From the NCBI GenBank assembly GCA_051859245.1, contig JBHYGA010000001.1:992001-1056000 (forward strand): DNA of 64,000 bases, read 5' to 3'. How positions within the stretch are numbered: position 1 is the first letter of the stretch; the number at the start of each line of letters is the position of its first letter. Shown here piece by piece: positions 8,884 to 62,109 of this stretch. This DNA comes from Gemmatimonadaceae bacterium. Its GTDB lineage: Bacteria > Gemmatimonadota > Gemmatimonadetes > Gemmatimonadales > Gemmatimonadaceae. The notes under the pieces are model-generated. The model searched no databases. It worked only from the letters and a program-made list of their open reading frames with translations, and had not been told where the DNA came from. Made by a program: the position numbers and the translations under genes.

Positions 8884-10004
8884 TACTGTTTCGGCGCCCC
8901 CAACTCCCTCGCCAACGTCGCCAACATCCGGTCGGCCAGCGGTGCCGGAATCGGTTCGTAACCAAGCTCACGCGCGATCTGATCACCACTGTGCAGCGCC
9001 CACTCGGCGAACCGTTGCACAGACTGCGTTTTTGTCGGGCCAATATGATCAGGCGCGACCAGCATCCAGGTGAACGACGAAATCGGATAGGCACGATCGC
9101 CAGGTGCATTCACAATTGAGAGCCGCAGGTCGAGCGGTTCATTGGCGATCGCGAGTGCACTGGTTGCGGCGGCGGCCATTTCGAATGCTGCCGGCGCAAC
9201 GAAGTTGCCCGCGGCGTTTCGCACCAGCGCGACTGGCAAACGGTTTTGTCGTGCGTACGACGATTCCACATATCCGATCGCGCCAAGCGTTTGCTTGACC
9301 TGTCCGGCTACTCCTTCATTGCCCTGACCGCCTGTGCCAACGGGCCACTGGACATCCTTGCCGCGACCAGGACCGGCGGCCCAATCCGCGCTCACGGCGA
9401 AGAGATAGTCAGAGAAAATGTACGACGTTCCACTGCCATCGGATCGGCGCACCACCTGCACGTCGCGATCGGGCAGCACTGCATCTGGATTGAGCGCGGC
9501 AAGTCGCGGATCATTCCATCGTGTTAACCGACCGAGAAAAACTTCGGCCAGAATCTCTGAAGACACACGGAGCGGTCGTTCGAGTTCTGGAAGGTTGTAC
9601 GTGATCGCAACCGCGCCGAGCACGGTTGGAATGTGCACCACCCGCGCGGTGGGGACGCGTGCAATTTCCTCGTTGCTCAATGGCGCATCGCTGGCCGCAA
9701 AGTCAACGGTGCCCGCGATGAGCCGATCAATGCCACCGCTCGATCCGATAGACTCATAGTTCACGCGCACGCCGGTTTGTGTGGCATACGTGTTGAACCA
9801 GCGTGCGTACAGCGGATACGGAAACGTGGCGCCCGCGCCGAGCAGGTCGACGTCACGAGGGGAGACGGGACTCGAATCAGTGCTTACAGCACCGTCACGC
9901 GTCGCGCCGTCACGCGACGCGCTATCACACCCCGTTGCCGCACCCAGCAACGCGACCACGGCAAGGCGGAGCCATGCCGCCGCACGCCCGTGGCGACGAT
10001 TCAT
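8883..10004 (-). CDS. pstS: Phosphate ABC transporter substrate-binding protein PstS (E. coli-like subfamily), lipoprotein
   Basis: GAGATFPYPLY, IGSSGGI, DFAASDAPL, RSDGSGTS, GNEGVAG, YPISSFTW; lipobox ATGC. Confidence 0.95.
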   Translation of the reverse strand: MNRRHGRAAAWLRLAVVALLGAATGCDSASRDGATRDGAVSTDSSPVSPRDVDLLGAGATFPYPLYARWFNTYATQTGVRVNYESIGSSGGIDRLIAGTVDFAASDAPLSNEEIARVPTARVVHIPTVLGAVAITYNLPELERPLRVSSEILAEVFLGRLTRWNDPRLAALNPDAVLPDRDVQVVRRSDGSGTSYIFSDYLFAVSADWAAGPGRGKDVQWPVGTGGQGNEGVAGQVKQTLGAIGYVESSYARQNRLPVALVRNAAGNFVAPAAFEMAAAATSALAIANEPLDLRLSIVNAPGDRAYPISSFTWMLVAPDHIGPTKTQSVQRFAEWALHSGDQIARELGYEPIPAPLADRMLATLARELGAPKQ

Positions 10005-43612: not shown

Positions 43613-43673
43613 TGTTGCTCATTTGTGACACAAGGGACCGGTTTGTTTTCGAGAATTGGGAATGTCTCTTGCA
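43613..43673 (+). promoter_or_regulatory. Putative sigma54 promoter and enhancer-like site upstream of the PEP-CTERM gene
   Basis: GG-AATGTCTCTT-GCA (GG 43659-60, GC 43671-72; GG-N10-GC); TGT-N12-ACA at 43613-43630. Confidence 0.5.
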
Positions 43674-43726
43674 ATCAGCGTAGGCGTTCCCGCTTGTCCC
43701 AGTTCACGCGTACGACGGAGTACACA

Positions 43727-44407
43727 GTGATTTCAGTTGCTCGGCTATTTGCGGCTTCGGCCGCTCTCGTAGTGCTCGCCTCCTCGGCGGAGGCACAGTT
43801 TACCTCGGTTGGTGGGTTCGATTTGCGCCGAGAGGGTACTGATCGTGAGCTCCTGTACGGTCAGTCACCCTCAGGCCCAGGACAAGTCGGCGCGGCGAAT
43901 ACCGATGGTTCAGGGTTTCACACGAATACGTTCGCGCCGTTCAGAATCAGCTACAACGCGACGCTTGGCACGATGCTGTTCTCCTGGGACCTGTTCAACT
44001 TCGGTGCGACCTACGCGATCAATCCGGTGTCGAACACGTTCAACGCGATTCAGTTCAACGTTCGCGGCGCAGCTGGTAACGGGGGCGTTGCGATCGACAA
44101 CGTCACGTACAATGGTTTGTCGTTGCTCGGCCTGCAGGAGTCGGGTGCAAACAACGTCTTCCTCCCGTTCGGCGGCGTCGATGCCTCGCAGGATTTCGAG
44201 ATCGAAGGCGATCTCAAGTTCGGAGCCGTCGCGAATCCACAGGGCAGCGCCGAGGCGCAGCGTTTTTCGTTTCGTTATGGCACGATCGAGGGTGATTTCA
44301 CTTCAGTGCCAACGTCCGAAGTGCCGGAGCCCACACAGATTGCGCTGATGGGACTTGGGTTGGCCGGATTGGCCGTCGCGGCTCGCCGTCGCCAGCAGAC
44401 GCGCTAA
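43727..44407 (+). CDS. PEP-CTERM sorting-domain surface protein
   Basis: GGAG RBS + GTG; signal peptide (AEA-Q); C-terminal VPEP-TM-RRR. Confidence 0.92.
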   Translation: MISVARLFAASAALVVLASSAEAQFTSVGGFDLRREGTDRELLYGQSPSGPGQVGAANTDGSGFHTNTFAPFRISYNATLGTMLFSWDLFNFGATYAINPVSNTFNAIQFNVRGAAGNGGVAIDNVTYNGLSLLGLQESGANNVFLPFGGVDASQDFEIEGDLKFGAVANPQGSAEAQRFSFRYGTIEGDFTSVPTSEVPEPTQIALMGLGLAGLAVAARRRQQTR

Positions 44408-44580: not shown

Positions 44581-47500
44581 CTACTGTCTCACCACCGAAC
44601 GCACGCCGTCTGAGAAGACCAACTCCAGGCGCCGTCCGTTGGTGACAACCGAATCGCCGGAGCGACGCACAAAGCCCATGATCTGACCGCTTGTTGCATC
44701 GCGGACCATCGCCATCGGGTAGGCCGCACTGTTCCAGCTGATGCGTGCACTGTTCGAGCTGACCGATGTGACACGCGACTCCGGATCCGGGCGCACCGTA
44801 GCGCGTGCAACGGCCGACTGCAGCACACTCGCGCGTGATGACTGTGCCTCGCGCACGCGCACGGTCGCCAGTCGCGATTCGAGCGACGCGGTCCACGGCA
44901 CCACCACGGCAAAGTGCCGCTCGTCGCGATCCGTGATGTGGTCAACGCGCTCGGCACTGAAGAACACCGCTTGCAGCGCCGCACCGGTGTTGTCGAGCAG
45001 TTCGGCGCGGTGCGTGCCGGTAAATGTGGTCGCCACGGGCGCACGCACACGAAAAGCGGGTTCAAGCGTGATGCGACCGTTCACGATGCGGCCCCAGACC
45101 AACAAGCCTTCGGTAGACGCGGACGGAGCAGAGGCTGCGCGCGATGCGGAGACACGCGGCTGCGTGCCGCGGTATTGCAGCACCGCGCTCCAGTTGTAAT
45201 CGCTGATCCAGTTGTTGTCGCAGTAGCTCATGATGTCGGTGGCGTTTGACTGCACCAGCGTGTTGGTGCTCGCATTCCAGCCGATCTGGCCAATCACACC
45301 GCCCGGGTACGGATAGCCTGGCGCGCCTCCCACATCACACGGCGCATGACCACGCGAAAAATTGTGTCCCCATTCGTGCGCGGCCACGTTGTCACCGCTC
45401 GGCATTTTGTCCCACCCGATCGCAGTGAGTCCCGGTACATAGCCGTAGCCGGCGATGCCGCTGTTGTAATTGGTGGCCACGACGCCGTAGTAATGCTGGT
45501 CAGGTGCTCCCTCAACCGTGCGCAGCGCGTTCATCTCGCTGAGCAGAGTCGACCAGCCGCTGGCGTTATTCGCATCCAGTTCCGTCACGCTTGATGTAAA
45601 GGGTGCACGCACGTCGGTAACGACAGCGTTGACGGGGAACAGTTGGCGCAACGTGACGAGAAACTGCTGGTGATTGGCGATGGTCACGTTGCCACTGAGT
45701 GCGCCCGTTACGACCGGCACAAAGCGCACGGTAAACGGAGGCACATTGCGCGTGGCGATCGCCTGCGGCGTTCCACCGGCCGGCCACACGTTGTCGGCGG
45801 CGTTGCCGTCAGGGAATGCGCCCGTGGGATCAAGCTCGGCCAGCACGCGCAATCCCGGTCGCATGTTCGCCGCCGGAATCGCGAGATTCCAGCTCGATTG
45901 TAGCACGCTCTGCGCGTCTGATAGTCGTACGCTCGACTCCGGCGCCGGAATGGTCGCGTTCTGCAGAAGCGTCGCGCCGTCGTACACACGCACGCGCACG
46001 GCCGGTTGTGCCGTGTTGGCCACGGTGGATCGTACGAACACACGCAGCAGTGCATCGCGACCGGCCACAAGTTCCACCGAACCGTCGAGTCGCTGCGTTG
46101 CCTGCGTTACGTGCACATGACTGATGAAGTAGTTCAGGCCGCCCGAGGCAGCGTACGTAAACGAGACAGGTACGCTGGTGTTCGCGACCACGTTCACGTT
46201 CGCGGCCGATGGTGAAGGCGTGTACGTGCTTCCGCCGCTGTTGTGCATTGATGCAGACACGGTGTAGCTGCCCGGGCTCAGGCCTGACACCGTTTGTGCG
46301 CCAAAGACTTGTTGCGTGCCCGAGGCGTTGGTGAGCGTAAACGTGGGCGTGATTCCCGGCGGCAGTCCCGACGCAGCAATGGCGATGGACCCGGAGGCCT
46401 GACCGTACGAAACGGACACGGTCACCGGCTGCGCCGATGCGCTGACCAGACGCTGCTGCGTGAGTGGAGTCGGTGTGTACGTGGCGCCAAGATGCGACAG
46501 TGAACTCGCCGAAATGATATAGGTGCCGGGTGTGAGTTGTGTGAGCGTGGTCGACGACGAAACGCCTTGCGAGAAATTGTTCGGTCCGGTTACGGTGATG
46601 CCGGCGGCGATACCATTCGGAACACCACTCACATTGATCGCGAGCGAACCGGTGCTGATGGTGTAGTGCACGGGCAATCGCAGGGTATCACCGGCGGTCG
46701 CGGTGCCTTGTGCTGTTGGGGGCGTGGGTACGTACGTAGCACCAGCGCTCGTGACCGATGTCGCGAGTACGCGCCAGATGCCCACGGCAGCAGGCGCAAT
46801 GTGTGTGGTGCGCGTGACGGACTGCGCTGCACCAGCTGGCGGAGTGAGCGTGATGCTTGCGTTCACGCCATCCGGCAGTCCGGTAACGGGGATGGCGACA
46901 ACGGTCGGCACCACCGAAAACGCAACGTTCACAGCTGTTGTTGCACCGGTGCTGATCACAACATTCTGTGTCACCAACGCCGGTGTGTATTTCACGTTGT
47001 CGGCAATGAACGATGCGGCGGTGAGCTGATACGATCCCACCGGCAGCGAGTCGAGCGTGGTGGCACCGTTGAGCGTACGTACGCTGTTCGCACCGGTGAG
47101 TGTAAGCGTTGGTACGGCGTTTGGCGGCAACCCGCTGGTGGTCACAGTGAGTCGGCCCACCTGTGCCGCGTATGCAACGTTCGCCGGCGAGGCCACCAGT
47201 GATGCCGATACGGTCACCTCGGTGCTGTCGGGCAGCGGATGATAGGTGACGCCTTGGCCCGACACAGGAAGGGCCGTTACGCGGTACGTTCCCGGCGCGA
47301 GATCGGTGACTGTTGCACTCGCGGCGATGGCGCGAGCAAATGCGTTCGGCCCGCGCACGCGAACCTGCGCATCGAGTCCCAGTGGCAGCCCAGAGACCGC
47401 CACGGCAATCGCTCCGCTCGCGAGTGTGTAGTTCACGTTCAGTCGCGCCGTGTCGCCAAAGAGCACACTCGCTTCAGCGGAGGCTGGCACCGGCGCGTAT

Positions 47501-48060
47501 CGAAAGCCACCCGTGCGCAGCGTATCGGCGACAAATCGCCAGACGCCGCCGTTCGCGTGCGTGAACACGCGCGAGCTTTCCGTGCGGATCGCAGAGTCTG
47601 TGGGGGTGAATACGGTGACCGGCGCGGCGACACCCGATGGTACGCCAGTGATGGTGAACGCCAGCGCCGATGGCACGGGCTCATATCGCACCACGGCCGT
47701 TGTTGGCGGCGCGCCGCTGACCACCGTCGCGCTGATCGTTGACGGGTTCGACGCATAGGTGCCGGTGGCGGCGCGTACGGGAATCACCGTGATGGTGTAG
47801 CTGCCGCCTGGCAAGTCACTCCAACTGGTGGTGCCCGTGGCCGCTCGATTGATGCCGGGTCCGCTGAGCGTGATACTCGCCGGTACACCGGGCAACCCTT
47901 CAACCGTGAGGATCAGAAGGCCGGGCGGCTGCGGCTGCGCCGCTGGCGGCGGTACCGTTGGTGGCGGACCCACAACGGTTTGCGTATCGCCGCCGGAACA
48001 GGCAGCGAGCAGGACAATCGCGAACGGCAGAACACCGCGAAGCATGGGCAGTCGGATCAC
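44581..48060 (-). CDS. Lipoprotein metzincin peptidase (M66-like) on a stalk of ~7 Ig-like repeats
   Basis: Lipobox LLAAC; seven ~85-aa G.L.V...GLP.G....TL.GP repeats; AHEWGHNFSRGHAPC and DIMSY Met-turn. Confidence 0.85.
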   Translation of the reverse strand: MIRLPMLRGVLPFAIVLLAACSGGDTQTVVGPPPTVPPPAAQPQPPGLLILTVEGLPGVPASITLSGPGINRAATGTTSWSDLPGGSYTITVIPVRAATGTYASNPSTISATVVSGAPPTTAVVRYEPVPSALAFTITGVPSGVAAPVTVFTPTDSAIRTESSRVFTHANGGVWRFVADTLRTGGFRYAPVPASAEASVLFGDTARLNVNYTLASGAIAVAVSGLPLGLDAQVRVRGPNAFARAIAASATVTDLAPGTYRVTALPVSGQGVTYHPLPDSTEVTVSASLVASPANVAYAAQVGRLTVTTSGLPPNAVPTLTLTGANSVRTLNGATTLDSLPVGSYQLTAASFIADNVKYTPALVTQNVVISTGATTAVNVAFSVVPTVVAIPVTGLPDGVNASITLTPPAGAAQSVTRTTHIAPAAVGIWRVLATSVTSAGATYVPTPPTAQGTATAGDTLRLPVHYTISTGSLAINVSGVPNGIAAGITVTGPNNFSQGVSSSTTLTQLTPGTYIISASSLSHLGATYTPTPLTQQRLVSASAQPVTVSVSYGQASGSIAIAASGLPPGITPTFTLTNASGTQQVFGAQTVSGLSPGSYTVSASMHNSGGSTYTPSPSAANVNVVANTSVPVSFTYAASGGLNYFISHVHVTQATQRLDGSVELVAGRDALLRVFVRSTVANTAQPAVRVRVYDGATLLQNATIPAPESSVRLSDAQSVLQSSWNLAIPAANMRPGLRVLAELDPTGAFPDGNAADNVWPAGGTPQAIATRNVPPFTVRFVPVVTGALSGNVTIANHQQFLVTLRQLFPVNAVVTDVRAPFTSSVTELDANNASGWSTLLSEMNALRTVEGAPDQHYYGVVATNYNSGIAGYGYVPGLTAIGWDKMPSGDNVAAHEWGHNFSRGHAPCDVGGAPGYPYPGGVIGQIGWNASTNTLVQSNATDIMSYCDNNWISDYNWSAVLQYRGTQPRVSASRAASAPSASTEGLLVWGRIVNGRITLEPAFRVRAPVATTFTGTHRAELLDNTGAALQAVFFSAERVDHITDRDERHFAVVVPWTASLESRLATVRVREAQSSRASVLQSAVARATVRPDPESRVTSVSSNSARISWNSAAYPMAMVRDATSGQIMGFVRRSGDSVVTNGRRLELVFSDGVRSVVRQ

Positions 48061-53875: not shown

Positions 53876-54142
53876 CTACACAAACATGGCGGGACTGATT
53901 TCCAGCGAGACTTCGGAAATTCGATGAGCGGGAATACCACTCCGACGCGCGTGCTCCAGTACGGCTTCCGGGTTGGGCGCAATGTACTCACAATAGATCT
54001 TGCCTTCGGCGTCGGACACGTAGCTCTTAACCCAGACCACCTCAGGCATATCTGCGAGCACGGCGTTCGAACTGCGGCCCGCAGCGGCGAGCTGTTCCGG
54101 TGTGAGTTGACCAACATTGCGTTCAATGATGTAACGCGGCAC
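53876..54142 (-). CDS. DUF4242-family small protein
   Basis: MPRYIIER, W..SYV...KIYC.Y.AP..E....HAR.SG.PA.RI.EV; GGAG RBS. Confidence 0.85.
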   Translation of the reverse strand: MPRYIIERNVGQLTPEQLAAAGRSSNAVLADMPEVVWVKSYVSDAEGKIYCEYIAPNPEAVLEHARRSGIPAHRISEVSLEISPAMFV

Positions 54143-54175
54143 GAGGACTCCAGGGTGAAGAGTGTTCCAAGAGGA

Positions 54176-57100
54176 TCAGGAAAGGGATACTGCGTGCAAC
54201 AAGCCCGGTTCATTCAGTTCCTGCGCGATCTCTCGCGCGGCTGCAGCGGCTTTCGCAGCCCCAGCGACATCATTCAGCAATGTGTTCGCGTGAGCGAGTC
54301 GATGCTGCATCCAGCCTTCACCACGTCGATCCGCGAGATCAACGCGGAGCAGCAACGACTGCGTGAAGCGTTCGCGCGCCTCTTCAAGTCGTCCGCTGGC
54401 GATGGCCACGTCACCAAGCGTAGCGTACGCGTGCGCGCGCAATTGCAGCTCACCGGTTTGCTCGGTGACTCGCACCGCCTCCACGAGTGCCGTGCGCGCT
54501 TCATCCCATCGTTTGAGCTGATGCAGTGATGCGCCAAGACTGTTCAGAATCAGCGCTTCGTGCACGCGGTCTGCATTTTCGCGGCAAAGTCGCAGCGCAA
54601 CCTCATAATGGTTCACGGCTTCCCGATACTCGCCGCGCTGCCAGTGCACGATACCGAGGGCGTTGCGCACCGTCAGCTCACGCTTGCGATCACCCACACG
54701 CACGGCGAGCGCGAGTGCGTCTTCGTATCGCGCGATAATCTGTTCGGGCGCGACATCGAGCTGTCGCTCGGCACGCGCGAGCCCGTCCAGCGCTTCGGCC
54801 TCTCCGGCCGCGTTGCCCGACGAGAGATGCACCGCACGCGCACGTTCCCAACTGTCGCGCGCCTGCTCCGGCTCGTGGAGTCGTTCGTAAGCCAGGGCCA
54901 GTCGACGCCACATCATGGCGGTATTGACGTGATCCTCAAGCTGCGCAAAGAGCTCCGCCGCGCGACGCAGATGCGGCAGGGCCTCAGACAACCGGCTGAG
55001 CCCCACCAATACCTCACCGAGTGATCGACTGGCGTGCGCCGAGCCTTCTGCGAAGCGTGCCTTCAGGTTGATGTCGAGCGCCTGCTGATACGTGGCGAGC
55101 GATTCCTCTACCAACCCCTGCTGCAACTGAATGTGCGCGATAGCGGGCAGTGTGAATGACGAGATCACTGGATGGCGATGTTCGAGGCCGTCGTTCATAA
55201 GCCGATGAAAGTATTCGAGCGCACGATCGTAGTCGCCGAGGTCGCGATGCACGGTGCCGATCACGTTGAGCAGTGCACCGTAGCGTACGGGATTGTCAGT
55301 CGCGGCCGTACGTTCCAGAGCGGCTTCCAGCACGGTGAGTGCTCGCGCCGAATCGCCCATCGCGCGCAGGATATTGGCCATGGTTGCCAGGTCGCCGGCT
55401 TCCGCACGCGTATCCGACGCTTCCCGGCCGAGCTCCAGCACGCGCTCGATGATGGCCAGCGCATCGGCATGTCGTCCTTCATGTGATCGGAGCAGGGCAA
55501 TGCTGCGTAATGCGTTGCGCTCACCGGCCGAATCAGCGCGTTCGTTGGCAATGTGTAGCGATGTCTCCAGGGCCCGCTCCGCCGATTGAAATCGGCGCAG
55601 CAACGTGAATGCATCTCCCTGTCGCAAGTACGCCTGCGCCAGTCGCTCCGACGGACCAAACGGCGCCAGCAGCGCAATCAATCGCTCCACCAGTCCCAAC
55701 TGACGGTTCCGCATGCCGAGTGTCTCGGAGAGGCGCTCCTGTCGAAACAGCACGTCCGCTTCGAGGTCGCGCCGCGAACTGTCGTCTGGCATGCGCGCGA
55801 GCCAGCGCTCAACACGTTCGAGCGTATGCAGTGCATCCGCGTTCTGATTAAGGTCCATGGTGCGATCAGCAGACTGCAAACCGTAGTTCACGGCTTCGGC
55901 CCACGACTCGGCACGTCCAAAATGATGCGCGAGTTTATCGACGTGTGATTCCAACCGGCCGGCATAGCGCGCTTCGATTGCCCGACCAACCGCCAGATGC
56001 ATGGACGCACGCTGATGCTCAAGCAAACTGTCGTACGCGACTTCCTGCGTCAGTGCATGCTTGAAGCGAAAGAGGGGCTCCGGCACGACACCGACTTGTT
56101 GCACCAGACCAGAGGCTTTCAGTCGTTCGAGGGCCTGCGGCAGTGCATCGCGCGATTCATACACCGCGTCAAGCACGCCGCGTGCAAAATCTCGACCGAT
56201 CACTGAAGCAATGCGTACCACATCAAGCGCGTGCACGTCAAGCCGATCAATGCGCGTGCGCAGCACGGCTTGTACAGTCTCCGGTACCAGTACTGTTCCT
56301 GTGTCACCCGAGGTGGTGGCCACACCGTCGAGTACCGCCACCGCACCGACTTCACGCAACGCTTCGCACACTTCCTCAAGGAAGAACGGGTTGCCGCCCG
56401 TCCGCTCATGCAGCTGTTGCGCGAGTTCCGGGGAGATATGCGACGCGCCGAGTACCCCGCACGCAATCGCCCAGGTGGCGGCGCCGTCGAGTGGCGTGAG
56501 ATGCAGCACACGCAGGTGATCCGAACTCCCCCACTCGATTGTTGCATCGGGCCGCGAGGTCGCGACGAGCATGAGAGGAGAGTTGGCCAGAATTTCGGAC
56601 AGGTTGCGAAGTGCCGCTCGTGACGCTTCATCCGCCCAGTGCCAGTCTTCCAGCAGCAACAACGTTGGCTGCGCGTGCGATCCCACGGTGAGAAGTGCGG
56701 CAATCGCGTCGAGCATGGCGCTTTGCAGGAGCTCGCCACGCAACTGTTCGGGCACAGGATACGCTGCACTTGGTATGGAGAGCAGCGCGAGCAAAAGCGG
56801 AAGGAACTCTTCGAGTGAGCGATCAATCGCGCGTGTCGAGAGCAGCAGGGCTTCGTGGCGCTCGGAGGGTGTTCCGCCTTCCGGCATCGCGAGTGCGTCG
56901 GCGATGGTTTCGATAAACGGTGCGAATGGGGTACTTCGGGCGTACGCATCGCAGTGCCCCACAAGCACTCGGACATCCGACGCGAAGGCGCCCGCGCGAA
57001 GCTCTCGCAACAAACGGCTCTTGCCAACACCTGCCTCGCCCACGATGGCGGTGAAGCTCCCGCTCCCCTGACGCACCGCCGCAAGTCGGGCCAACAGTTC

Positions 57101-58855
57101 GGCGCGTTCGCGTTCGCGACCAACGAATGGTGTCAGCGAATCGATCGCCGCTCCATCGAGACGAGATCGTACGTCCGATTCGCCAATCACCACGAACGTG
57201 CCAACGGGTATGCCATCCGAGGACGTGGTCGTTCCTCGCGCTGCCGCTGTGCGCACGAATGGCGTGACCAACCGCCGTGCTTCTGCGCTGATCACGATGG
57301 TATCGGGATCCGCGGCCGCATTCAGTCGTGAGGCGACGTCAACCGGTGCGCCACTCAGCCGATAACGTCGGTCTTCATTGGCGGACTGCTGCACGACCAC
57401 CGGACCTACGTGCACTCCAACGCGCAAACGCAGTGCGATCGGAATCCTTGCTGGTAGCGTTGTTGTGAGATCGCGGACACGCGCCTGCAGCCCGATGGCA
57501 GCTCGAACACCAGAGAGCGCGTCTTCATCGTGCGCCGTTGGTACCCCGAACAACATGACCAGACTGTCGCCGGTCACCTGATTCAACACGCCGCCGTGGG
57601 CCTTGGCCGTCTCCGCAGCGGCTTCGCGAATCTGCGCCAGGACACCGTCTGCCTCGTCTGGAGCGAGACGTTCAAACAGTGCATCGTGACCATCAATCGT
57701 GCACACGACGAGCGTCACATGTCGCCGCTCGCCGCTGCGCGAAATGCGCGTGTCCCGCGTGGGATCTGGCGCAGCGCGGCCCTCATTTAGACTGGCCGGT
57801 TCTGCGGTGATTGGGCGCGTGGTGCAGGCGAGCAACGCGCCGAGCAGCTGCGCGGCGTCGGCATAACGATCGCCGGGACGTTTCGCGAGGAGGGTGCGCA
57901 CGACGGCTTCAACATCGGGTGGCACATCGGAGCGCGCCTGCGAAAACGGGGCCGGGTCGGCCGAAAGCGTTGCCACCAGCAACGCCTGATCCGCGCTCCC
58001 ACGAAACGGTCGAACTCCCGCCAGCATTTCGTACATCACGACGCCGAGCGACCAAAGATCGGTGCGGTGATCGACTGTTTCGCCGAAGGCCTGCTCCGGA
58101 CTCATGTAGGCAAGCGTACCGATTACGGCCGTTGCCTGCGTGGCTGTGACATCCGACAACTTGGCAATCCCGAAATCGAGGATCTTGACCAGACCGTCGG
58201 CCGTGATCATGACATTCGCCGGCTTGATGTCGCGGTGCACGATGCCGCGCTGGTGCGCCTTGATCAGTCCGCGCGTGATCTCTGCGCTGATACGAATCGC
58301 TTCCGCCACCGGGAGCGGGCCGCGCGCGATGCAACGGTCGAGCGTTTCGCCGTCATAACACGCCATGACGATGTGCAATGTGCCGTCGGACATTTCGCCG
58401 ATTTCGTGCACCGTGCAAATGTTCGGATGCTCAATGGCCGCCGCGGCACGTGCCTCGACAAGGAAGCGCTTCTTCGCCACCGGATCTTCGCTGAGATGCG
58501 TTGGAAGAAACTTCAGCGCGACCTCTCGACCAAGTCGATCATCGCTGGCGCGATAGACCACACCCATGCCGCCTTTGCCCAGCTGTTCGAGCAGGCGGTA
58601 ACGCGAGTGCGCCGGAAGAGACAGCGCCGGCGTCGACACAAGCGCGGGTGAGGGCAGCAGTGGAGACATGACTTCTTCCACCAGCTGGTCCAGTACGCCC
58701 CGTCGCTCGTGCGCGGCGAGCAGCGCTTGAACCTCGGCTCGTACGCTTGCGTCGGGCGCCACGCGCAGAAGAAACGATTCGCGCTCAGGTCGCGGCTGCG
58801 TTAGCGCGTCCTGAAACAACGCCTCCACGGCGGCCCATTTTTCGGCGGCGTTCAC
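54176..58855 (-). CDS. Ser/Thr kinase - degenerate class III cyclase - STAND (AAA_16) ATPase - TPR multidomain protein
   Basis: GKGGMG, VALK, HRDIKPAN, DFG, YMSPEQ; GERRHVT..GD..FG..RVGVH cyclase fold; FVGRERE, GEAGVGKS, LLEDWHWAD, GGNPFF, F.H.L; long TPR array; no TM. Confidence 0.9.
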   Translation of the reverse strand: MNAAEKWAAVEALFQDALTQPRPERESFLLRVAPDASVRAEVQALLAAHERRGVLDQLVEEVMSPLLPSPALVSTPALSLPAHSRYRLLEQLGKGGMGVVYRASDDRLGREVALKFLPTHLSEDPVAKKRFLVEARAAAAIEHPNICTVHEIGEMSDGTLHIVMACYDGETLDRCIARGPLPVAEAIRISAEITRGLIKAHQRGIVHRDIKPANVMITADGLVKILDFGIAKLSDVTATQATAVIGTLAYMSPEQAFGETVDHRTDLWSLGVVMYEMLAGVRPFRGSADQALLVATLSADPAPFSQARSDVPPDVEAVVRTLLAKRPGDRYADAAQLLGALLACTTRPITAEPASLNEGRAAPDPTRDTRISRSGERRHVTLVVCTIDGHDALFERLAPDEADGVLAQIREAAAETAKAHGGVLNQVTGDSLVMLFGVPTAHDEDALSGVRAAIGLQARVRDLTTTLPARIPIALRLRVGVHVGPVVVQQSANEDRRYRLSGAPVDVASRLNAAADPDTIVISAEARRLVTPFVRTAAARGTTTSSDGIPVGTFVVIGESDVRSRLDGAAIDSLTPFVGRERERAELLARLAAVRQGSGSFTAIVGEAGVGKSRLLRELRAGAFASDVRVLVGHCDAYARSTPFAPFIETIADALAMPEGGTPSERHEALLLSTRAIDRSLEEFLPLLLALLSIPSAAYPVPEQLRGELLQSAMLDAIAALLTVGSHAQPTLLLLEDWHWADEASRAALRNLSEILANSPLMLVATSRPDATIEWGSSDHLRVLHLTPLDGAATWAIACGVLGASHISPELAQQLHERTGGNPFFLEEVCEALREVGAVAVLDGVATTSGDTGTVLVPETVQAVLRTRIDRLDVHALDVVRIASVIGRDFARGVLDAVYESRDALPQALERLKASGLVQQVGVVPEPLFRFKHALTQEVAYDSLLEHQRASMHLAVGRAIEARYAGRLESHVDKLAHHFGRAESWAEAVNYGLQSADRTMDLNQNADALHTLERVERWLARMPDDSSRRDLEADVLFRQERLSETLGMRNRQLGLVERLIALLAPFGPSERLAQAYLRQGDAFTLLRRFQSAERALETSLHIANERADSAGERNALRSIALLRSHEGRHADALAIIERVLELGREASDTRAEAGDLATMANILRAMGDSARALTVLEAALERTAATDNPVRYGALLNVIGTVHRDLGDYDRALEYFHRLMNDGLEHRHPVISSFTLPAIAHIQLQQGLVEESLATYQQALDINLKARFAEGSAHASRSLGEVLVGLSRLSEALPHLRRAAELFAQLEDHVNTAMMWRRLALAYERLHEPEQARDSWERARAVHLSSGNAAGEAEALDGLARAERQLDVAPEQIIARYEDALALAVRVGDRKRELTVRNALGIVHWQRGEYREAVNHYEVALRLCRENADRVHEALILNSLGASLHQLKRWDEARTALVEAVRVTEQTGELQLRAHAYATLGDVAIASGRLEEARERFTQSLLLRVDLADRRGEGWMQHRLAHANTLLNDVAGAAKAAAAAREIAQELNEPGLLHAVSLS

Positions 58856-58862
58856 TCGGCGT

Positions 58863-59450
58863 TCACTCCGCGCTCAGTTCACGATTTAACCACGCGCGTG
58901 CCGCCGTCCAGTCACGCTTTACCGTGGCCGGTGAAAGATTCAGCGCCTCAGCCGTTTCTTCGATACTCAAGCCAACGAAAAAGCGGCATTCGACAATCCG
59001 ACCGTGTCGCGGATTGAGTGCGGCCAATCGCTCGAGCGCGTCATCGAGTGCGGTGAGATGATCGAGGTTCTGATCCACCGCAGACATCTGTGCATCAGCG
59101 TGCTCAAGCGGCACCAGCAGCTCGCCGCCACCGCGTTTCTGGGCGCGTCGCGTTTCGGCATAGTCGACCAGCACGCGTCGCATTGTGCGCGCCGCCATGG
59201 CCAAGACATGTGTGCGGTCTCGCCATTGCATCCGATCCAGACCTTCCAAACGCAAGAACGCCTCGTGGACCAGTCCGTCCGTCTCAAGCGTATGCCCCTC
59301 GGCCTCACCAGCAAGTTGACGCCGCGCAATAAGCCGCAGACGGTCGTGTAGTAAACCCAGCACTTGCTTGAGTGCGTTAGCGTCACCGTGACTGGCGATA
59401 TGCAGCAGCCGAGTGACGTCGCCTTGATCGGGGATCTCTTGGACGGTCAT
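58863..59450 (-). CDS. ECF sigma factor, TIGR02999/ECF43-like (kinase-associated)
   Basis: VT.LL...G, HTL....LVHEAFLRL, W.DR.H, MRRVLVD.A..R.A.KRGG, ECRFF.GL, TVKRDW..ARAWL. Confidence 0.92.
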   Translation of the reverse strand: MTVQEIPDQGDVTRLLHIASHGDANALKQVLGLLHDRLRLIARRQLAGEAEGHTLETDGLVHEAFLRLEGLDRMQWRDRTHVLAMAARTMRRVLVDYAETRRAQKRGGGELLVPLEHADAQMSAVDQNLDHLTALDDALERLAALNPRHGRIVECRFFVGLSIEETAEALNLSPATVKRDWTAARAWLNRELSAE

Positions 59451-59631
59451 GCCAGGGCAGTAAGGGAAGGGAGGCCGTTCACTTAAGGAGGCGGGAACGT
59501 CAGGCGAAACGGCTCATCCGCCTTGTGGGCAGGTCAATCTACGTCTTCTGGCGAATAGCCCCACGCGGTCGCGTGATCGAGTTTGAAGGAACGCTACCAC
59601 TTGAACCACACATCAGTGAACGGAGAGTGTC

Positions 59632-60195
59632 ATGGAAGACCGACTCGCGACCGAACGTAGCACCGCAGGAACCACTGGCCGTCTGGACAACACGACCGCC
59701 GGCCAGCTCATGCACCTAAGCGACATGAACGACTACGAAATCGCAGACGGCGAACCGGATATCCGAGGTTGGGATGTGCGGGCGAGCAACGGCGACAAGA
59801 TTGGGGACGTGGAGGATCTGCTGGTTGACTCGGCGACACTGCGCGTCCGGTACATCGAAGTCAAGCTCGAGAAGGATCTTGTCGCTAATGCCGATCGTCG
59901 CCATGCGTTGCTGCCCATCGGTTCGGCGCGCCTCGACGATGATGACGACAATGTGCTCGTCAGCATGGACAGTGAGCGGTTGCGTGCACTGCCGCCCTAT
60001 GTACGCGGCACGCTGAATCGCGAATATGAGCAGTCGGTGGTGGACGGATTTCGCCGCCCGGACGATCGCGTCATGTCGACGGACGCCGACCGCGATTTTT
60101 ATGACGGCGACCAGTTCGACGATCGCCGCACGTTCGAGACACGTCGGACTCCCGGCCGTGAAGACACCGGGTACATGCGTCGATTGGGCGAGTAA
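59632..60195 (+). CDS. PRC-barrel domain protein
   Basis: EPDIRGW.V....G.KIG.V.DLLVD....VRY; GGAG RBS. Confidence 0.85.
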   Translation: MEDRLATERSTAGTTGRLDNTTAGQLMHLSDMNDYEIADGEPDIRGWDVRASNGDKIGDVEDLLVDSATLRVRYIEVKLEKDLVANADRRHALLPIGSARLDDDDDNVLVSMDSERLRALPPYVRGTLNREYEQSVVDGFRRPDDRVMSTDADRDFYDGDQFDDRRTFETRRTPGREDTGYMRRLGE

Positions 60196-60204
60196 CGATT
60201 GGTC

Positions 60205-62109
60205 CTACGTTGGGGTTGGTTGATACAGCAGCGCGTCGTGCACTTCGCGACGCGCTGCGGTTAACCGGTCCACGTCTTCGCCAACCGCTCGCGCGGCCTC
60301 AATGAGCGTCGTGAGCGGCGCCACGTCTGACTCACCGGCGTGCAGGCGCAACAGATCGAGTCGTATTGCCTCGAGTGCCGCAACGCTCCGGGCCAGTCGT
60401 GCGCCGGCCGCGTTTCGTCGATCAGCCAGTAGCTCGTTGTTGGCGGAGTCGGGCGCCAGGGCGGCCACCACATCCAGATCGGCGCGTGCCTCTGCTGCCT
60501 GCGCCTCGAGCGCGGCGACCGTCGCGGGCAGATCGCGCAGCTGTTCACGATACGCTTGCGGCAGCGCAGCAAACAGTTCGCCCGCCGCAACGCCGAGCGC
60601 GGCTTCCGTGGCGCGAAACACGCCTCCGCCCACTGCGCGTGAACGAGCCGGTGCGCCAAGCCGTTTTGCCAGCCACGCGCCGGCGCGACTGCTCCAGAGT
60701 CGTTCGCGAATACCGGTCTGCAACAGATCACGCACACGGTGTGGAATGAACTGCACATCCAGCGCGTTGCTGATGGCGCCAAACAACATGGTGGTCAGCA
60801 CGGGCGCCACGATCACAATTGGCGCCATTTCATTTTCCCTGATCGTACCGGCAATCAGCAGGCCGATCGTGCTGGCCAACCAGCCAGCCGCCCCCAACGT
60901 CGCAACGCGCAACAACCGCGGCCCTGGGCCTTCTGGTGTGCTCCGTATGAGCGCGTCCGTCTCGCTCCGCTCCCGACGCGCCACGCCGAGTGCCGTGCGC
61001 AGATCGGCCAGCGTATGCCCGGCTTTGAACTGAAGGCGGGCCTGATTGAGGTGGTACCCGATGATCGGAAACAATGGCAGCGACGTAATTGCCGCGAGGA
61101 GGACGATGTCGGCTGGACCATCCGGCCGATTGCCGGTGACCCACGCAATAAGATTGGCCAGCGTCATAAAGCCAAAGACTGCTGACCAACCCGCGTACGG
61201 CACCAGAAGCGGGTTGCGCGCCGAGAGCCACGCACGAAGCGATGTGGGCAGCACCGGACGTGCATCGGATGACGGCGCGAGCGCTGCGGCAACAGCTTCG
61301 CCGTCCTGAAAGCGATGTGCAGGATCACGTTCAAGACATCGATCGATTGTGGTGCCGATCACACTCGGCAATCCCGGTGCGATCTGCAGGACGCTCGTTG
61401 GTACCTCGGTTGCCTGACGGACAAGAAGCGCCGGAAGATTACTCGTCTCGAATGGCAGACGCCCACTCACGGCGAGGTACCCCACGACGCCGAGCGCGTA
61501 AATGTCGCTGCGTCCGTCGATTGATGAACCGGCCGCCTGTTCAGGGCTCATGAAATGCGCGGTGCCCATGAGCATGCCGGGATCGGTGCTCGGGCCCGCG
61601 TGTGTTGCGCCGTGCGCAATGCCGAAATCGGTGACGAGCGCGCGCCCCGTACTGGCTTCGAGCAGAATGTTATCTGGTTTCACGTCACGGTGAACGATGC
61701 CACGTCCATGGGCGTATGCGAGTGCCCAGGCAACCTCGCGCAGGACACGCGCGGCATCGGCGGGAGGGAGCGGACCCCGGGTGCGCAGCCGCTCGCCGAG
61801 CGTTTCGCCTTCCACGTACGCCATCACGAAATACACGATGCCGCGCGCTTCACCAACGCGGTGAATGGGCACGATATGCGGATGTGACAGACCGGCCGCG
61901 GTTCGCGCCTCGCGCAAGAATCGAGCGCGCGTTGCTTCCGACGCGAGTTGCGAGGGGAGCGTCTTGATTGCCACATCGCGGTCGAGCTGCACGTCTCGCG
62001 CGAGGTAGACAATGCCCATGCCGCCGCGGCCCAATTCGCGCTGTAGCGAGTATTCGCCCGCCAGAGCGGACTGCAGCGCGAGGAATTCGTTGTCGTGGGG
62101 TGAGGTCAT
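60205..62109 (-). CDS. Ser/Thr protein kinase with ~4 TM helices and C-terminal helical domain
   Basis: ELGRGGMG, VAIK, HRDVKPDN, DFG, MSPEQ; hydrophobic segments after the kinase domain. Confidence 0.9.
   Translation of the reverse strand: MTSPHDNEFLALQSALAGEYSLQRELGRGGMGIVYLARDVQLDRDVAIKTLPSQLASEATRARFLREARTAAGLSHPHIVPIHRVGEARGIVYFVMAYVEGETLGERLRTRGPLPPADAARVLREVAWALAYAHGRGIVHRDVKPDNILLEASTGRALVTDFGIAHGATHAGPSTDPGMLMGTAHFMSPEQAAGSSIDGRSDIYALGVVGYLAVSGRLPFETSNLPALLVRQATEVPTSVLQIAPGLPSVIGTTIDRCLERDPAHRFQDGEAVAAALAPSSDARPVLPTSLRAWLSARNPLLVPYAGWSAVFGFMTLANLIAWVTGNRPDGPADIVLLAAITSLPLFPIIGYHLNQARLQFKAGHTLADLRTALGVARRERSETDALIRSTPEGPGPRLLRVATLGAAGWLASTIGLLIAGTIRENEMAPIVIVAPVLTTMLFGAISNALDVQFIPHRVRDLLQTGIRERLWSSRAGAWLAKRLGAPARSRAVGGGVFRATEAALGVAAGELFAALPQAYREQLRDLPATVAALEAQAAEARADLDVVAALAPDSANNELLADRRNAAGARLARSVAALEAIRLDLLRLHAGESDVAPLTTLIEAARAVGEDVDRLTAARREVHDALLYQPTPT

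Follow-up and report, generated by a model that had tools for sequence, protein, structure and literature searches.

In the 64,000-nt stretch of DNA from a soil-type Gemmatimonadaceae bacterium analysed here (the window), three co-directional minus-strand ORFs encode, in this order, an ECF sigma factor, a 1559-aa kinase/cyclase/STAND/TPR protein and a small DUF4242 protein. We regard it as moderately probable that they constitute a three-gene cytoplasmic unit, in which a STAND receptor-kinase is accompanied by a leader-coupled ECF43-like sigma and a DUF4242 partner. This reading draws on the domain anatomy, on the conservation of the triad and on two separate co-occurrence patterns, one joining the N-terminal leader of the large protein to the sigma and the other joining DUF4242 to the STAND body, all of which were observed directly.

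The sigma gene (58863..59450, minus strand; 195 aa, ATG start) is separated by 7 nt (58856-58862) from the gene of the large protein (54176..58855, minus strand; GTG start), which is followed after 33 nt (54143-54175) by the DUF4242 gene (53876..54142, minus strand; 88 aa, GTG start), with GGAG located 7 nt ahead of the DUF4242 start. The ORF coordinates bear out the initial annotation of three co-directional genes with 7- and 33-nt gaps, which presumably form an operon, and each part of the triad is present in one copy within the window. The presumed promoter lies in the intergenic region upstream of the sigma (59451..59631, minus strand), common to a divergent PRC-barrel gene. No sigma-70-like site was found in this region, the aligned upstream regions of the window and four close relatives contain no conserved blocks, and a bipartite k-mer search of 20 upstream regions revealed no enrichment, its maximum count of 6 equalling that of mononucleotide shuffles. 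The only terminator-like site is inside a coding region, a count below that of shuffles. The neighbouring genes of the window are housekeeping-like (according to Pfam, a PALP enzyme, LptF/G, YGGT and a 5'-3' exonuclease), and none of them is common to at least three loci, giving no conserved-neighbour hints of the regulon. An acyl-CoA-dehydrogenase-like gene recurs near some of the distant loci only.

Behind its leader, the large protein carries a Hanks-type Ser/Thr kinase domain (residues 86-334; 57854..58600, minus strand; Pkinase 5.4e-47), in which the Gly-rich loop (G93/G95/G98), the catalytic K115, E134, H207-R208-D209, K211, N214, D227-F228-G229 and the APE-like S252-P253-E254 are invariant in 12 full-length homologues. 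These complete catalytic motifs support an intact kinase. It is followed by a class III cyclase-homology domain (residues 378-531; 57263..57724, minus strand; Guanylate_cyc 3.1e-11). Active class III cyclases rely on two metal-binding Asp residues, a Lys for the substrate, and Asn and Arg for the transition state; when aligned to 2w01 and 3r5g, the window domain has T386 in place of the first metal Asp, Q426 in place of the Lys and D506 in place of the Asn, retaining D430 and R510 only. The fold is degenerate in all 13 complete orthologous loci described below, the first Asp being missing in every one, and the domain is probably non-catalytic. The next module shows the features of STAND NTPases, namely a P-loop with both Walker motifs that leads into a helical region and then into a repeat-type sensor: the STAND P-loop NTPase module (55706..57130, minus strand) comprises AAA_16 (residues 576-764, 1.2e-26) and a helical region to ~1050, with Walker A GxxGxGKS (606-613; G606...G611-K612-S613), Walker B E736-D737 and R768 unchanged throughout the 12 full-length homologues. 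The C-terminal TPR array, the presumed sensor (residues ~1090-1550; 54206..55588, minus strand), is matched by TPR_12 in 7 stretches (5.3e-43), while TPR_MalT, at 9.1e-11 and 42 bits, stays under its 45-bit cut-off. A crude hydropathy scan detected no transmembrane segment, the top Kyte-Doolittle 19-residue window reaching 1.60 at residues 684-702 within AAA_16. Thus, the kinase that had initially been called intact, the cyclase-fold/STAND/TPR body and the missing transmembrane segment where one was expected are all upheld.

Related loci were collected in one scan with two patterns, one covering a kinase motif and the other a motif of the NTPase region, which yielded 73 loci whose domain content was Pfam-confirmed on a sample and whose co-occurrence counts are not phylogenetically independent. 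Complete kinase-cyclase-NTPase-TPR genes are present in 13 of them. The neighbourhood search for the triad proposed in the initial annotation recovered all three genes in 11 of the 13 complete orthologous loci, with DUF4242 directly downstream in 13/13 and the sigma directly upstream in 11/13. One complete orthologue (L009) has neither sigma nor leader and keeps DUF4242, and another without a sigma (L010) carries an alpha/beta-hydrolase fused ahead of the leader. In one locus (L001), the end of the sigma gene runs 4 nt into the kinase gene; another (L072) has the same overlap, provided that translation begins at the leader Met at 10001.

The leader (residues 1-63; 58667..58855, minus strand) forms a three-helix module, behind which comes a linker of low model confidence (64-83). 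Its AlphaFold2 model places helices at residues 3-18, 22-32 and 36-63, with block-mean pLDDT of 90-96 over residues 1-50, and W7, R25, R39, L45 and A48 are each shared by 90% or more of the 20 sequences compared. A profile of the 20 leaders matches residues 5-65 of PknS (PDB 9eed_A) with E=2.5e-8; by sequence, it is thus a homologue of the N-terminal part of PknS, the kinase proven for EcfK, and the window protein thereby shares with PknS a helical segment that precedes the kinase domain. Pfam and NCBIfam contain no significant match to the leader (best E=0.085), and in the protein atlas it falls into 'hypothetical protein' clusters only, even though it occurs in ~60,000 representative proteins. 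In the PknS paper (PMC13147305), the role of this leader is called unknown. Among our loci, 19 of the 21 leader-bearing kinases have a sigma upstream, as opposed to 1 of the 67 leaderless ones, and the pairing spans C-terminal modules ranging from TPR to REC-SpoIIE. These counts and the homology to PknS agree with the initial description of the leader as typical of sigma-associated kinases, and it is likely a sigma-coupling module.

The sigma matches the Pfam family Sigma70_ECF (PF07638, E=4.9e-49, residues 10-193) and NCBIfam TIGR02999 (191 bits; cut-off 126). According to the supplement text of PMC7826278, from which we took the ECF43 criteria, ECF43 sigmas match PF07638 whole, not the separate sigma-2 and sigma-4 models, and the window sigma does the same. 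Moreover, a Ser/Thr kinase occupies position +1 and no anti-sigma family is present among the neighbours scanned (small ORFs in part), which supports the ECF43-like assignment made at the outset. The same layout, that is, a Sigma70_ECF-type sigma with a kinase directly downstream and no anti-sigma, characterizes EcfK-PknS of Xanthomonas citri and EcfP-PknT of Vibrio parahaemolyticus. As described in PMC13147305, PknS spans the membrane as a receptor whose TPRs are periplasmic, and it phosphorylates EcfK; the supplement of PMC7826278 attributes one transmembrane helix to 87.8% of ECF43 kinases, from which a share of 12.2% lacking this one helix can be derived. Unlike the kinases of these two pairs, the window kinase shows no hydrophobic stretch of the kind expected for a membrane helix, and it extends into a pseudo-cyclase/STAND/TPR body, with its TPRs following a cytoplasmic NTPase; the locus further differs by the added DUF4242 gene and by an Asp at the phospho-threonine position of the sigma.

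In ECF43 sigmas, S/T residues that include a phospho-acceptor Thr take the place of the acidic DAED motif in sigma-2.2, giving x-T-T-A, whereas the window sigma reads E56-T57-D58-G59, so that the EcfK phospho-threonine T51 aligns to Asp58. The T51-equivalent position is acidic in 120/120 of the closest sigma clusters (Asp in 119, Glu in 1), and a simple phospho-switch at this site is therefore unlikely, contrary to the initial annotation, in which the kinase was supposed to switch on the sigma as in EcfK and EcfP. More distant relatives do have x-T-T-A, with Thr at the T51-equivalent position in 13/21 and Ser in 1/21, and among the STAND-linked sigmas 6/13, with the window included, have Thr or Ser there.

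The third gene product matches the SCO4226-like family (PF14026, 1.6e-26), and its model (pLDDT 88.9) finds as its best PDB match 4oi6 (TM 0.74/0.79, E=5.6e-7), sharing family and ferredoxin-like fold with SCO4226 of Streptomyces coelicolor (PDB 4OI3/4OI6). Unlike SCO4226, it has S43/E46/S76 instead of the Ni-1 ligands D43/S46/H76 (HMMER alignment to 4oi3) and 2 His residues versus 9, and it scores 31.5 bits against the 125-bit cut-off of NF033706. With the Ni-1 ligands missing, the metal-sensor role considered initially is without support, and a nickel sensor was rejected as a candidate. Another difference from SCO4226 is a 2-residue hairpin insertion combined with a C-terminal P-x-M-F tail, which assigns the window protein to a STAND-associated subtype: the STAND-linked DUF4242 proteins of both phyla have this insertion and a P-x-(M/I/S)-F tail, both missing in 5 other copies.

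The distribution of DUF4242 follows the STAND body. It lies directly downstream of 13/14 STAND kinases and of 0/64 kinases without a STAND body, and it is missing from 8/8 sigma-linked kinases that have no STAND body; one kinase with cyclase and AAA_16 (L024) has no DUF4242. Kinase-less AAA_16-type neighbours of DUF4242 occur in five proteobacterial genera. SAM-cyclase-AAA_16(-TPR) proteins of Rhizobium, Paraburkholderia and Ruegeria resemble the window protein in their cyclase-AAA_16 body and in having DUF4242 directly downstream (41, 56 and 26 nt), but carry a SAM N-terminus in place of leader and kinase and no adjacent sigma; TPRs were detected in the Rhizobium and Ruegeria proteins, and no TPR family at threshold in that of Paraburkholderia. 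Of the residues needed for cyclase catalysis, the Rhizobium protein retains every one, and that of Paraburkholderia retains both metal Asp residues and the Arg but neither the Lys nor the Asn. In Ruegeria, an unrelated sigma-70 family gene lies ~3.6 kb from the SAM-cyclase-AAA_16-TPR gene. In Caballeronia, DUF4242 adjoins a split cyclase/AAA gene set (read without a domain scan), and in Ralstonia, the gene of an AAA_16-TPR-LuxR protein comes directly after the DUF4242 gene. Fused forms were limited to three longer proteins, each with PF14026 alone, which is weak evidence. Judged by gene neighbourhood, DUF4242 belongs with the STAND/TPR receptor and not with the sigma. MalT-type STAND activators (AAA_16-TPR-LuxR) likewise combine an AAA_16 NTPase with a TPR sensor, yet their output is a fused DNA-binding domain, while the window protein would act on a sigma through its N-terminal kinase. 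MalT is restrained by small protein partners, which provide a model for the role proposed for DUF4242.

In the reading that we favour, the 1559-aa protein would be a STAND-type receptor, with the TPR array and the AAA_16 NTPase serving as a nucleotide-dependent switch and the N-terminal Hanks kinase as the output domain. By analogy with STAND proteins and dimerization-activated Hanks kinases, a signal would relieve autoinhibition, upon which the NTPase module would oligomerize and the kinase domains would meet and autophosphorylate, the degenerate cyclase fold possibly acting as a dimerizing spacer. The three-helix leader on its flexible linker would couple the kinase to the co-encoded ECF43-like sigma, probably by docking, and the sigma would then drive transcription of its regulon. 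For DUF4242, the most likely role is that of a protein partner determining the state of the STAND/TPR receptor, either as a co-sensor or as an inhibitor. Considering that an Asp already occupies the phospho-threonine position in this clade, kinase control would have to proceed via another site (T57 or elsewhere) or via leader-mediated holding and release. Asp58 speaks against the only mechanism that has been demonstrated in ECF43 sigmas and counts against our main reading.

An alternative that we consider rather unlikely gives the kinase protein the main role of a holder in the cytoplasm, similar to an anti-sigma, whose leader sequesters a core-binding-competent sigma (E56/D58) until STAND activation or autophosphorylation releases it, sigma phosphorylation not being the switch. 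It would account for the fixed acidic residue, is in line with the activity of the EcfK T51E phosphomimetic without its kinase (PMC8999054), and agrees with the leader being an independent helical module strictly tied to the sigma and with the lack of a separate anti-sigma family among the scanned neighbours. Nevertheless, the catalytic kinase residues are all invariant in the family, which implies selection for kinase activity, and among more distant STAND-linked sigmas there are some that keep Thr or Ser at the critical site. A fold search with the leader model likewise brings no help, returning 0 PDB matches at E<=0.001 (best E=2.2), so that the fold is uninformative for or against an anti-sigma-like fold or sigma binding.

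Still less probable is an ordinary ECF43-type phospho-switch, in which the kinase would activate the sigma by phosphorylating T57 or linker sites, and DUF4242 would be no more than a target or passenger gene transcribed along with the other two. T57 is conserved in 90% or more of the 20 sigmas compared, the kinase is intact, and the EcfK linker harbours further functional phosphosites according to PMC13147305; yet EcfK T106 and S108 correspond to Pro and Glu in the window sigma, by a hand alignment of the linker in which the loop alignment is uncertain. The occurrence of DUF4242 beside STAND bodies that have no kinase, leader or sigma (in Rhizobium, Ruegeria, Ralstonia and others), together with its absence from the sigma-linked kinases without a STAND body, also argues against this scheme. 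Finally, it is highly improbable that the protein serves in anti-phage defence, as an Avs-like STAND protein whose effector is the kinase, or regulates a TOMM/RiPP cluster, and both readings were rejected: the protein does match the PADLOC PD-T4-6 and mad6 kinase models and, across residues 109-1033, TIGR03903 (TOMM system kinase/cyclase fusion protein), with which it shares the kinase-cyclase-NTPase order, but the 25 of 34 PADLOC matches listed are generic, comprising 24 kinase models and one TPR model, with 22 of the 24 listed kinase matches within residues ~77-363 and the other two ending at 396 and 512, neither the sigma nor DUF4242 has a PADLOC match, TIGR03903 reaches 459.6 bits against a cut-off of 705.75, no TOMM genes are nearby, and the Pfam matches of the housekeeping-like neighbours include no RiPP or defence family.

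Ser/Thr-kinase control of ECF sigmas is a route proven only recently, with two studied pairs, both involving membrane kinases, and the favoured reading would place the same sigma-leader coupling on a cytoplasmic NLR-like receptor. A survey of >900 ECF43 members by Iyer et al. 2020 (EcfP/PknT) reportedly exists in which kinase architectures may already be listed. Kinase-STAND proteins as such are already known: PknK of Mycobacterium tuberculosis (Rv3080c) is described in PMC9045387 as a soluble Ser/Thr kinase which belongs to the STAND family and has transcription regulators under its control, a likeness to the window protein drawn from that description, and the portion consulted mentions for PknK neither a leader nor a cyclase fold, nor a neighbouring ECF sigma or DUF4242. 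NCBI gives the name 'PknK' to two orthologues of the window protein in Gemmatimonas. The original statement that no characterized example was known consequently goes too far as regards the kinase, given PknK and the 12.2% of ECF43-linked kinases that lack the one transmembrane helix; going by the parts of the literature consulted, the novelty lies in a wiring of known parts that was not studied before.

A more far-reaching proposal, which we advance tentatively and hold to be unlikely, is that DUF4242 of the hairpin and P-x-M-F subtype is a dedicated partner of AAA_16-TPR STAND receptors across phyla whatever their output (kinase, cyclase or LuxR), and that in Gemmatimonadota such a receptor was rewired to transcription via a Hanks kinase whose leader holds an ECF sigma independently of a phospho-threonine. 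If true, the kinase-borne leader would act as an anti-sigma that can be released, a way of controlling ECF sigmas for which there is as yet no description. At the level of what was observed, DUF4242, a domain without an assigned function, accompanies a clade of STAND receptors in more than one phylum, and an acidic phospho-site substitution fixed in a whole sigma clade next to an intact kinase raises the question of the role of the kinase there. The leader, without a Pfam or NCBIfam model despite its abundance, offers a testable lead on sigma coupling, and because cultured Gemmatimonas species have orthologues, the system is open to laboratory study.

The unit consists of three minus-strand ORFs encoding an ECF sigma factor of 195 aa (58863-59450; Pfam Sigma70_ECF, 4.9e-49; TIGR02999, 191 bits, cut-off 126), a large protein of 1559 aa (54176-58855) and a protein of 88 aa belonging to the SCO4226-like family, formerly DUF4242 (53876-54142; 1.6e-26). 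The ORF list and the junction sequences read from the window bear out the co-directional arrangement described in the initial annotation, with gaps of 7 nt between the sigma and large genes and 33 nt between the large gene and DUF4242. Just upstream of the triad, a second Hanks kinase (60205-62109, minus strand; 634 aa, Pkinase at residues 20-268) is devoid of the leader, the three-helix module that precedes the kinase domain of the large protein, and has, by eye, a C-terminal half rich in hydrophobic stretches; a divergent PRC-barrel gene (59632-60195, plus strand) separates it from the sigma gene. Elsewhere in the window, a 1159-aa ORF without a Pfam match (44581-48060, minus strand) displays, by eye, a hydrophobic stretch at the N-terminus, a long central part that is repetitive and an HExxH motif close to the C-terminus, and adjoins a gene for a PEP-CTERM protein (43625-44407, plus strand).

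According to Pfam, the large protein carries kinase (Pkinase, residues 86-334), cyclase (Guanylate_cyc, 378-531) and NTPase (AAA_16, 576-764) domains followed by a long TPR array (TPR_12 in seven stretches), and the nearest relatives belong to Gemmatimonadaceae, among them Gemmatimonas groenlandica and G. phototrophica. In a hydropathy scan, as distinct from a dedicated transmembrane predictor, no window exceeds 1.60, a maximum lying inside the NTPase; the suggested lack of a transmembrane segment is upheld at this level, and the protein is therefore most likely cytoplasmic. The kinase is indeed intact, every catalytic motif being invariant among 12 full-length homologues (47-100% identity). 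The invariance extends to R768 and both Walker motifs (A and B) of the NTPase. Alignment of the cyclase domain to two cyclase structures (2w01 and 3r5g), at positions whose catalytic roles we take to be as in class III cyclases, shows the first metal Asp, the substrate Lys and the transition-state Asn replaced by Thr386, Gln426 and Asp506, respectively, with only Asp430 and Arg510 kept. The first Asp is missing in 13 of 13 orthologous loci, and the second is gone in four of them. With these three replacements, and AAA_16 and TPR matched by Pfam, the pseudo-cyclase/STAND/TPR body holds, and 'pseudo-cyclase' is a fair description of the fold.

Species-representative genomes were scanned with an alignment of homologues of the large protein (A1), giving more than 619 pattern matches; the top 80 yielded 73 loci, whose six-frame ORFs were searched with the window sigma, the window DUF4242 and A1 sub-profiles for leader, kinase, cyclase, NTPase and TPR; a sample of the domain calls was confirmed by Pfam. 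A complete kinase-cyclase-NTPase-TPR gene is present in 13 of these loci, and two further such genes (L004 and L012) are truncated at contig ends. In this neighbourhood check, DUF4242 lies directly downstream of the complete gene in 13/13 loci and the sigma directly upstream in 11/13. Neither sigma nor leader accompanies the gene in L009, from a MAG labelled gammaproteobacterial, and in L010 (9080-14773) an alpha/beta-hydrolase (Abhydrolase_1, residues 42-262) is fused ahead of the leader, with DUF4242 downstream and no sigma upstream. Apart from L009 and a full triad in L006, a MAG labelled Acidobacteriota, the STAND-kinase loci are all from Gemmatimonadota; these two labels could reflect gene transfer or binning error. 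In L001, a close relative, the stop codon of the sigma gene overlaps the kinase start by 4 nt, as it does in L072 if translation there begins at the leader Met at 10001; this arrangement fits co-translation. In the window, a perfect 11-nt tandem duplication (58845-58870, minus strand) spans both the stop codon of the sigma gene and the GTG with which the kinase gene starts, which accounts for the 7-nt gap as compared with the L001 overlap (-4 + 11 = 7). An acyl-CoA-dehydrogenase-like gene, absent from the window, occurs upstream or downstream at several distant orthologous loci, on the opposite strand beside the triad in L005 (15077-16489), L007 (7710-8951), L013 (7671-8873) and also L006; it could be a target gene.

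When each kinase ORF with a visible flank in the scanned loci is counted, two separate linkages emerge. A sigma gene lies upstream of 19 of the 21 kinases with a leader and of 1 of the 67 without (Fisher p = 5e-16), and DUF4242 lies downstream of 13 of the 14 with a STAND NTPase match and of none of the 64 without (p = 6e-14), both p-values overstating independence because a single scan supplied all the rows and their sequences are related. Eight leader-kinases have no STAND body, their C-termini being, for example, TPR, PD40 or REC-SpoIIE; seven of them (not that of L027) have the sigma and none has DUF4242. The leader therefore tracks the sigma factor, and DUF4242 tracks the receptor body.

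The leader (residues 1-63) is predicted to form three helices (3-18, 22-32 and 36-63), with ten-residue block means of pLDDT of 90-96 over residues 1-50, and is joined to the kinase by a linker modelled at low confidence. It has no match among Pfam or NCBIfam models. Of 1.84 billion searched, 60,313 representative proteins matched a profile built from 20 leader sequences at E<=0.001; tightening the threshold to E<=1e-10 left 12,227. All 34 long matches scanned, out of 150 listed, contain a Pkinase domain, in most cases directly behind the leader; in two (P0147 and P0215) the best leader match is N-terminal and the kinase lies ~800 residues downstream. Their other domains include TPR, a PD40 propeller, AAA_16 with or without the cyclase fold, NB-ARC with TPR, and ankyrin. 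One matched protein (P0127, 1156 aa) has ten leader stretches, one of them (449-513) just ahead of its lone kinase domain (520-783); if the leader docks a sigma, this protein would hold many docking sites. The profile also matches residues 5-65 of PDB 9eed chain A (E=2.5e-8), which is PknS(1-364) of Xanthomonas citri. PknS has been shown to phosphorylate the ECF43 sigma EcfK; its N-terminal 83-residue segment was invisible in the crystal, and its authors give the role of that segment as unknown (PMC13147305). This match and the upstream sigma genes agree with the initial description of the leader as typical of sigma-associated kinases.

As described in reviews and in the PknS study, region 2.2 of ECF43 sigmas has S/T where an acidic DAED motif would otherwise stand, and phosphorylation of one Thr provides the charge for core polymerase binding, the motif being STTA in EcfP of Vibrio parahaemolyticus and QATE, with T51, in EcfK (PMC8999054, PMC13147305, PMC7826278); the T51E phosphomimetic of EcfK is active without the kinase (PMC8999054, PMC13147305). 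With the register set by the EcfK phosphopeptide from the supplement (T51 followed by E-L-V-H-E-A), the corresponding residues of the window sigma are E56-T57-D58-G59, which puts Asp58 at the phospho-position. Across the window sigma and 20 locus sigmas, 13 have T here, one has S, two have G and five have D, and all seven without S or T come from STAND-type loci. Of the 120 sigma clusters nearest to the window sigma (69-100% identity; one entry read by eye), 119 carry Asp at this position and one carries Glu; the classical switch is therefore absent from this clade, while the kinase is still intact. The triad shares three ECF43 features: the sigma matches the Pfam model, the kinase occupies +1 and no anti-sigma was found, and the leader is of the PknS type. 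It departs in two, the S/T that takes the place of DAED and the membrane location of the kinase, with its TPRs outside. The label 'ECF43-like' survives on the shared features, but not with respect to the phospho-Thr. By analogy, the triad may work like an ECF43 sigma/kinase pair.

The link between DUF4242 and STAND proteins extends beyond the phylum. We searched a plasmid collection by tblastn (55 records) and inspected contexts in ten genera. Three of them, Rhizobium, Paraburkholderia and Ruegeria, encode a SAM-cyclase-AAA_16 protein of 1175-1207 aa whose gene stops 26-56 nt ahead of DUF4242; TPR families are present in the Rhizobium and Ruegeria proteins, and none reached threshold in that of Paraburkholderia. 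In Caballeronia, the corresponding position beside DUF4242 is taken by genes annotated one by one as cyclase, AAA-ATPase and hypothetical, the first two matched by our cyclase and NTPase profiles, and in Ralstonia an AAA_16-TPR-LuxR protein begins 12 nt after it. The context is unrelated in Mycolicibacterium, Deinococcus and Paracoccus; the contexts in Neorhizobium and Gemmatirosa fit neither pattern clearly. Across 24 aligned DUF4242 proteins, the Cys at C51 is always present. Two residues inserted in the central hairpin and a P-x-(M/I/S)-F tail at the C-terminus mark the 19 that are STAND-linked, which come from both phyla; neither occurs in the other five. The DUF4242 model (pLDDT 88.9) is ferredoxin-like and matches SCO4226 (4oi6, TM 0.74/0.79), for which the original study gives Asp43, Ser46 and His76 as the sole complete, conserved nickel site, surface-exposed and weakly binding (Kd 10 uM) (PMC4186839). 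In the HMMER alignment to 4oi3, these ligands become Ser43, Glu46 and Ser76 in the window protein, which scores 31.5 bits on the Ni-binding NCBIfam model (cut-off 125); we therefore rejected a nickel sensor, and the metal-sensor role offered initially is not supported. Two Streptomyces DUF4242 homologues were named 'guanylate cyclase' in 2014 NCBI records (Figure 2 legend of the same paper, PMC4186839), names that may echo the DUF4242-cyclase neighbourhood.

Hanks kinases are usually activated by bringing kinase domains together, and MalT is restrained by small proteins. Going beyond the observed domain anatomy and gene linkages, and reasoning from other STAND proteins, we somewhat favour a scheme in which the TPR/NTPase body would be a nucleotide-dependent switch whose oligomerisation draws the kinase domains together, the leader would dock the sigma, and DUF4242, by likeness to MalT, would act on the receptor as a co-sensor or inhibitor; the sigma would have to be controlled via another residue or via holding and release by the leader. 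A variant in which the leader simply holds and releases the sigma appears unlikely; the acidic phospho-site speaks for it and the invariant kinase motifs speak against it. A simple phospho-switch in which DUF4242 is only a passenger is a shade more doubtful still; the intact kinase speaks for it, and the linkage of DUF4242 to the STAND body speaks against it. A role in defence or with RiPPs is highly improbable, and the small remainder belongs to something outside these readings.

Kinase-STAND fusions are already known: PknK of Mycobacterium tuberculosis is described as a soluble kinase of the STAND family that acts on transcription regulators (PMC9045387). Two Gemmatimonas orthologues are named 'PknK' by NCBI, and the domain order of TIGR03903 is common with the large protein, although the score falls below the model cut-off. 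The initial statement that no characterised example was known is too strong for the kinase; for the whole triad, no published account of a sigma/STAND-kinase/DUF4242 unit, or of a DUF4242-STAND link, was found in a search lying mostly outside subscription journals. Overall, the initial observation is borne out and its interpretation holds in part. The triad represents a known type of signalling in a variant that is conserved and uncharacterised. Two things about it are surprising: DUF4242 partners STAND receptors and, as the chief unexplained point, the phospho-site is fixed as an acidic residue next to a kinase that is intact.
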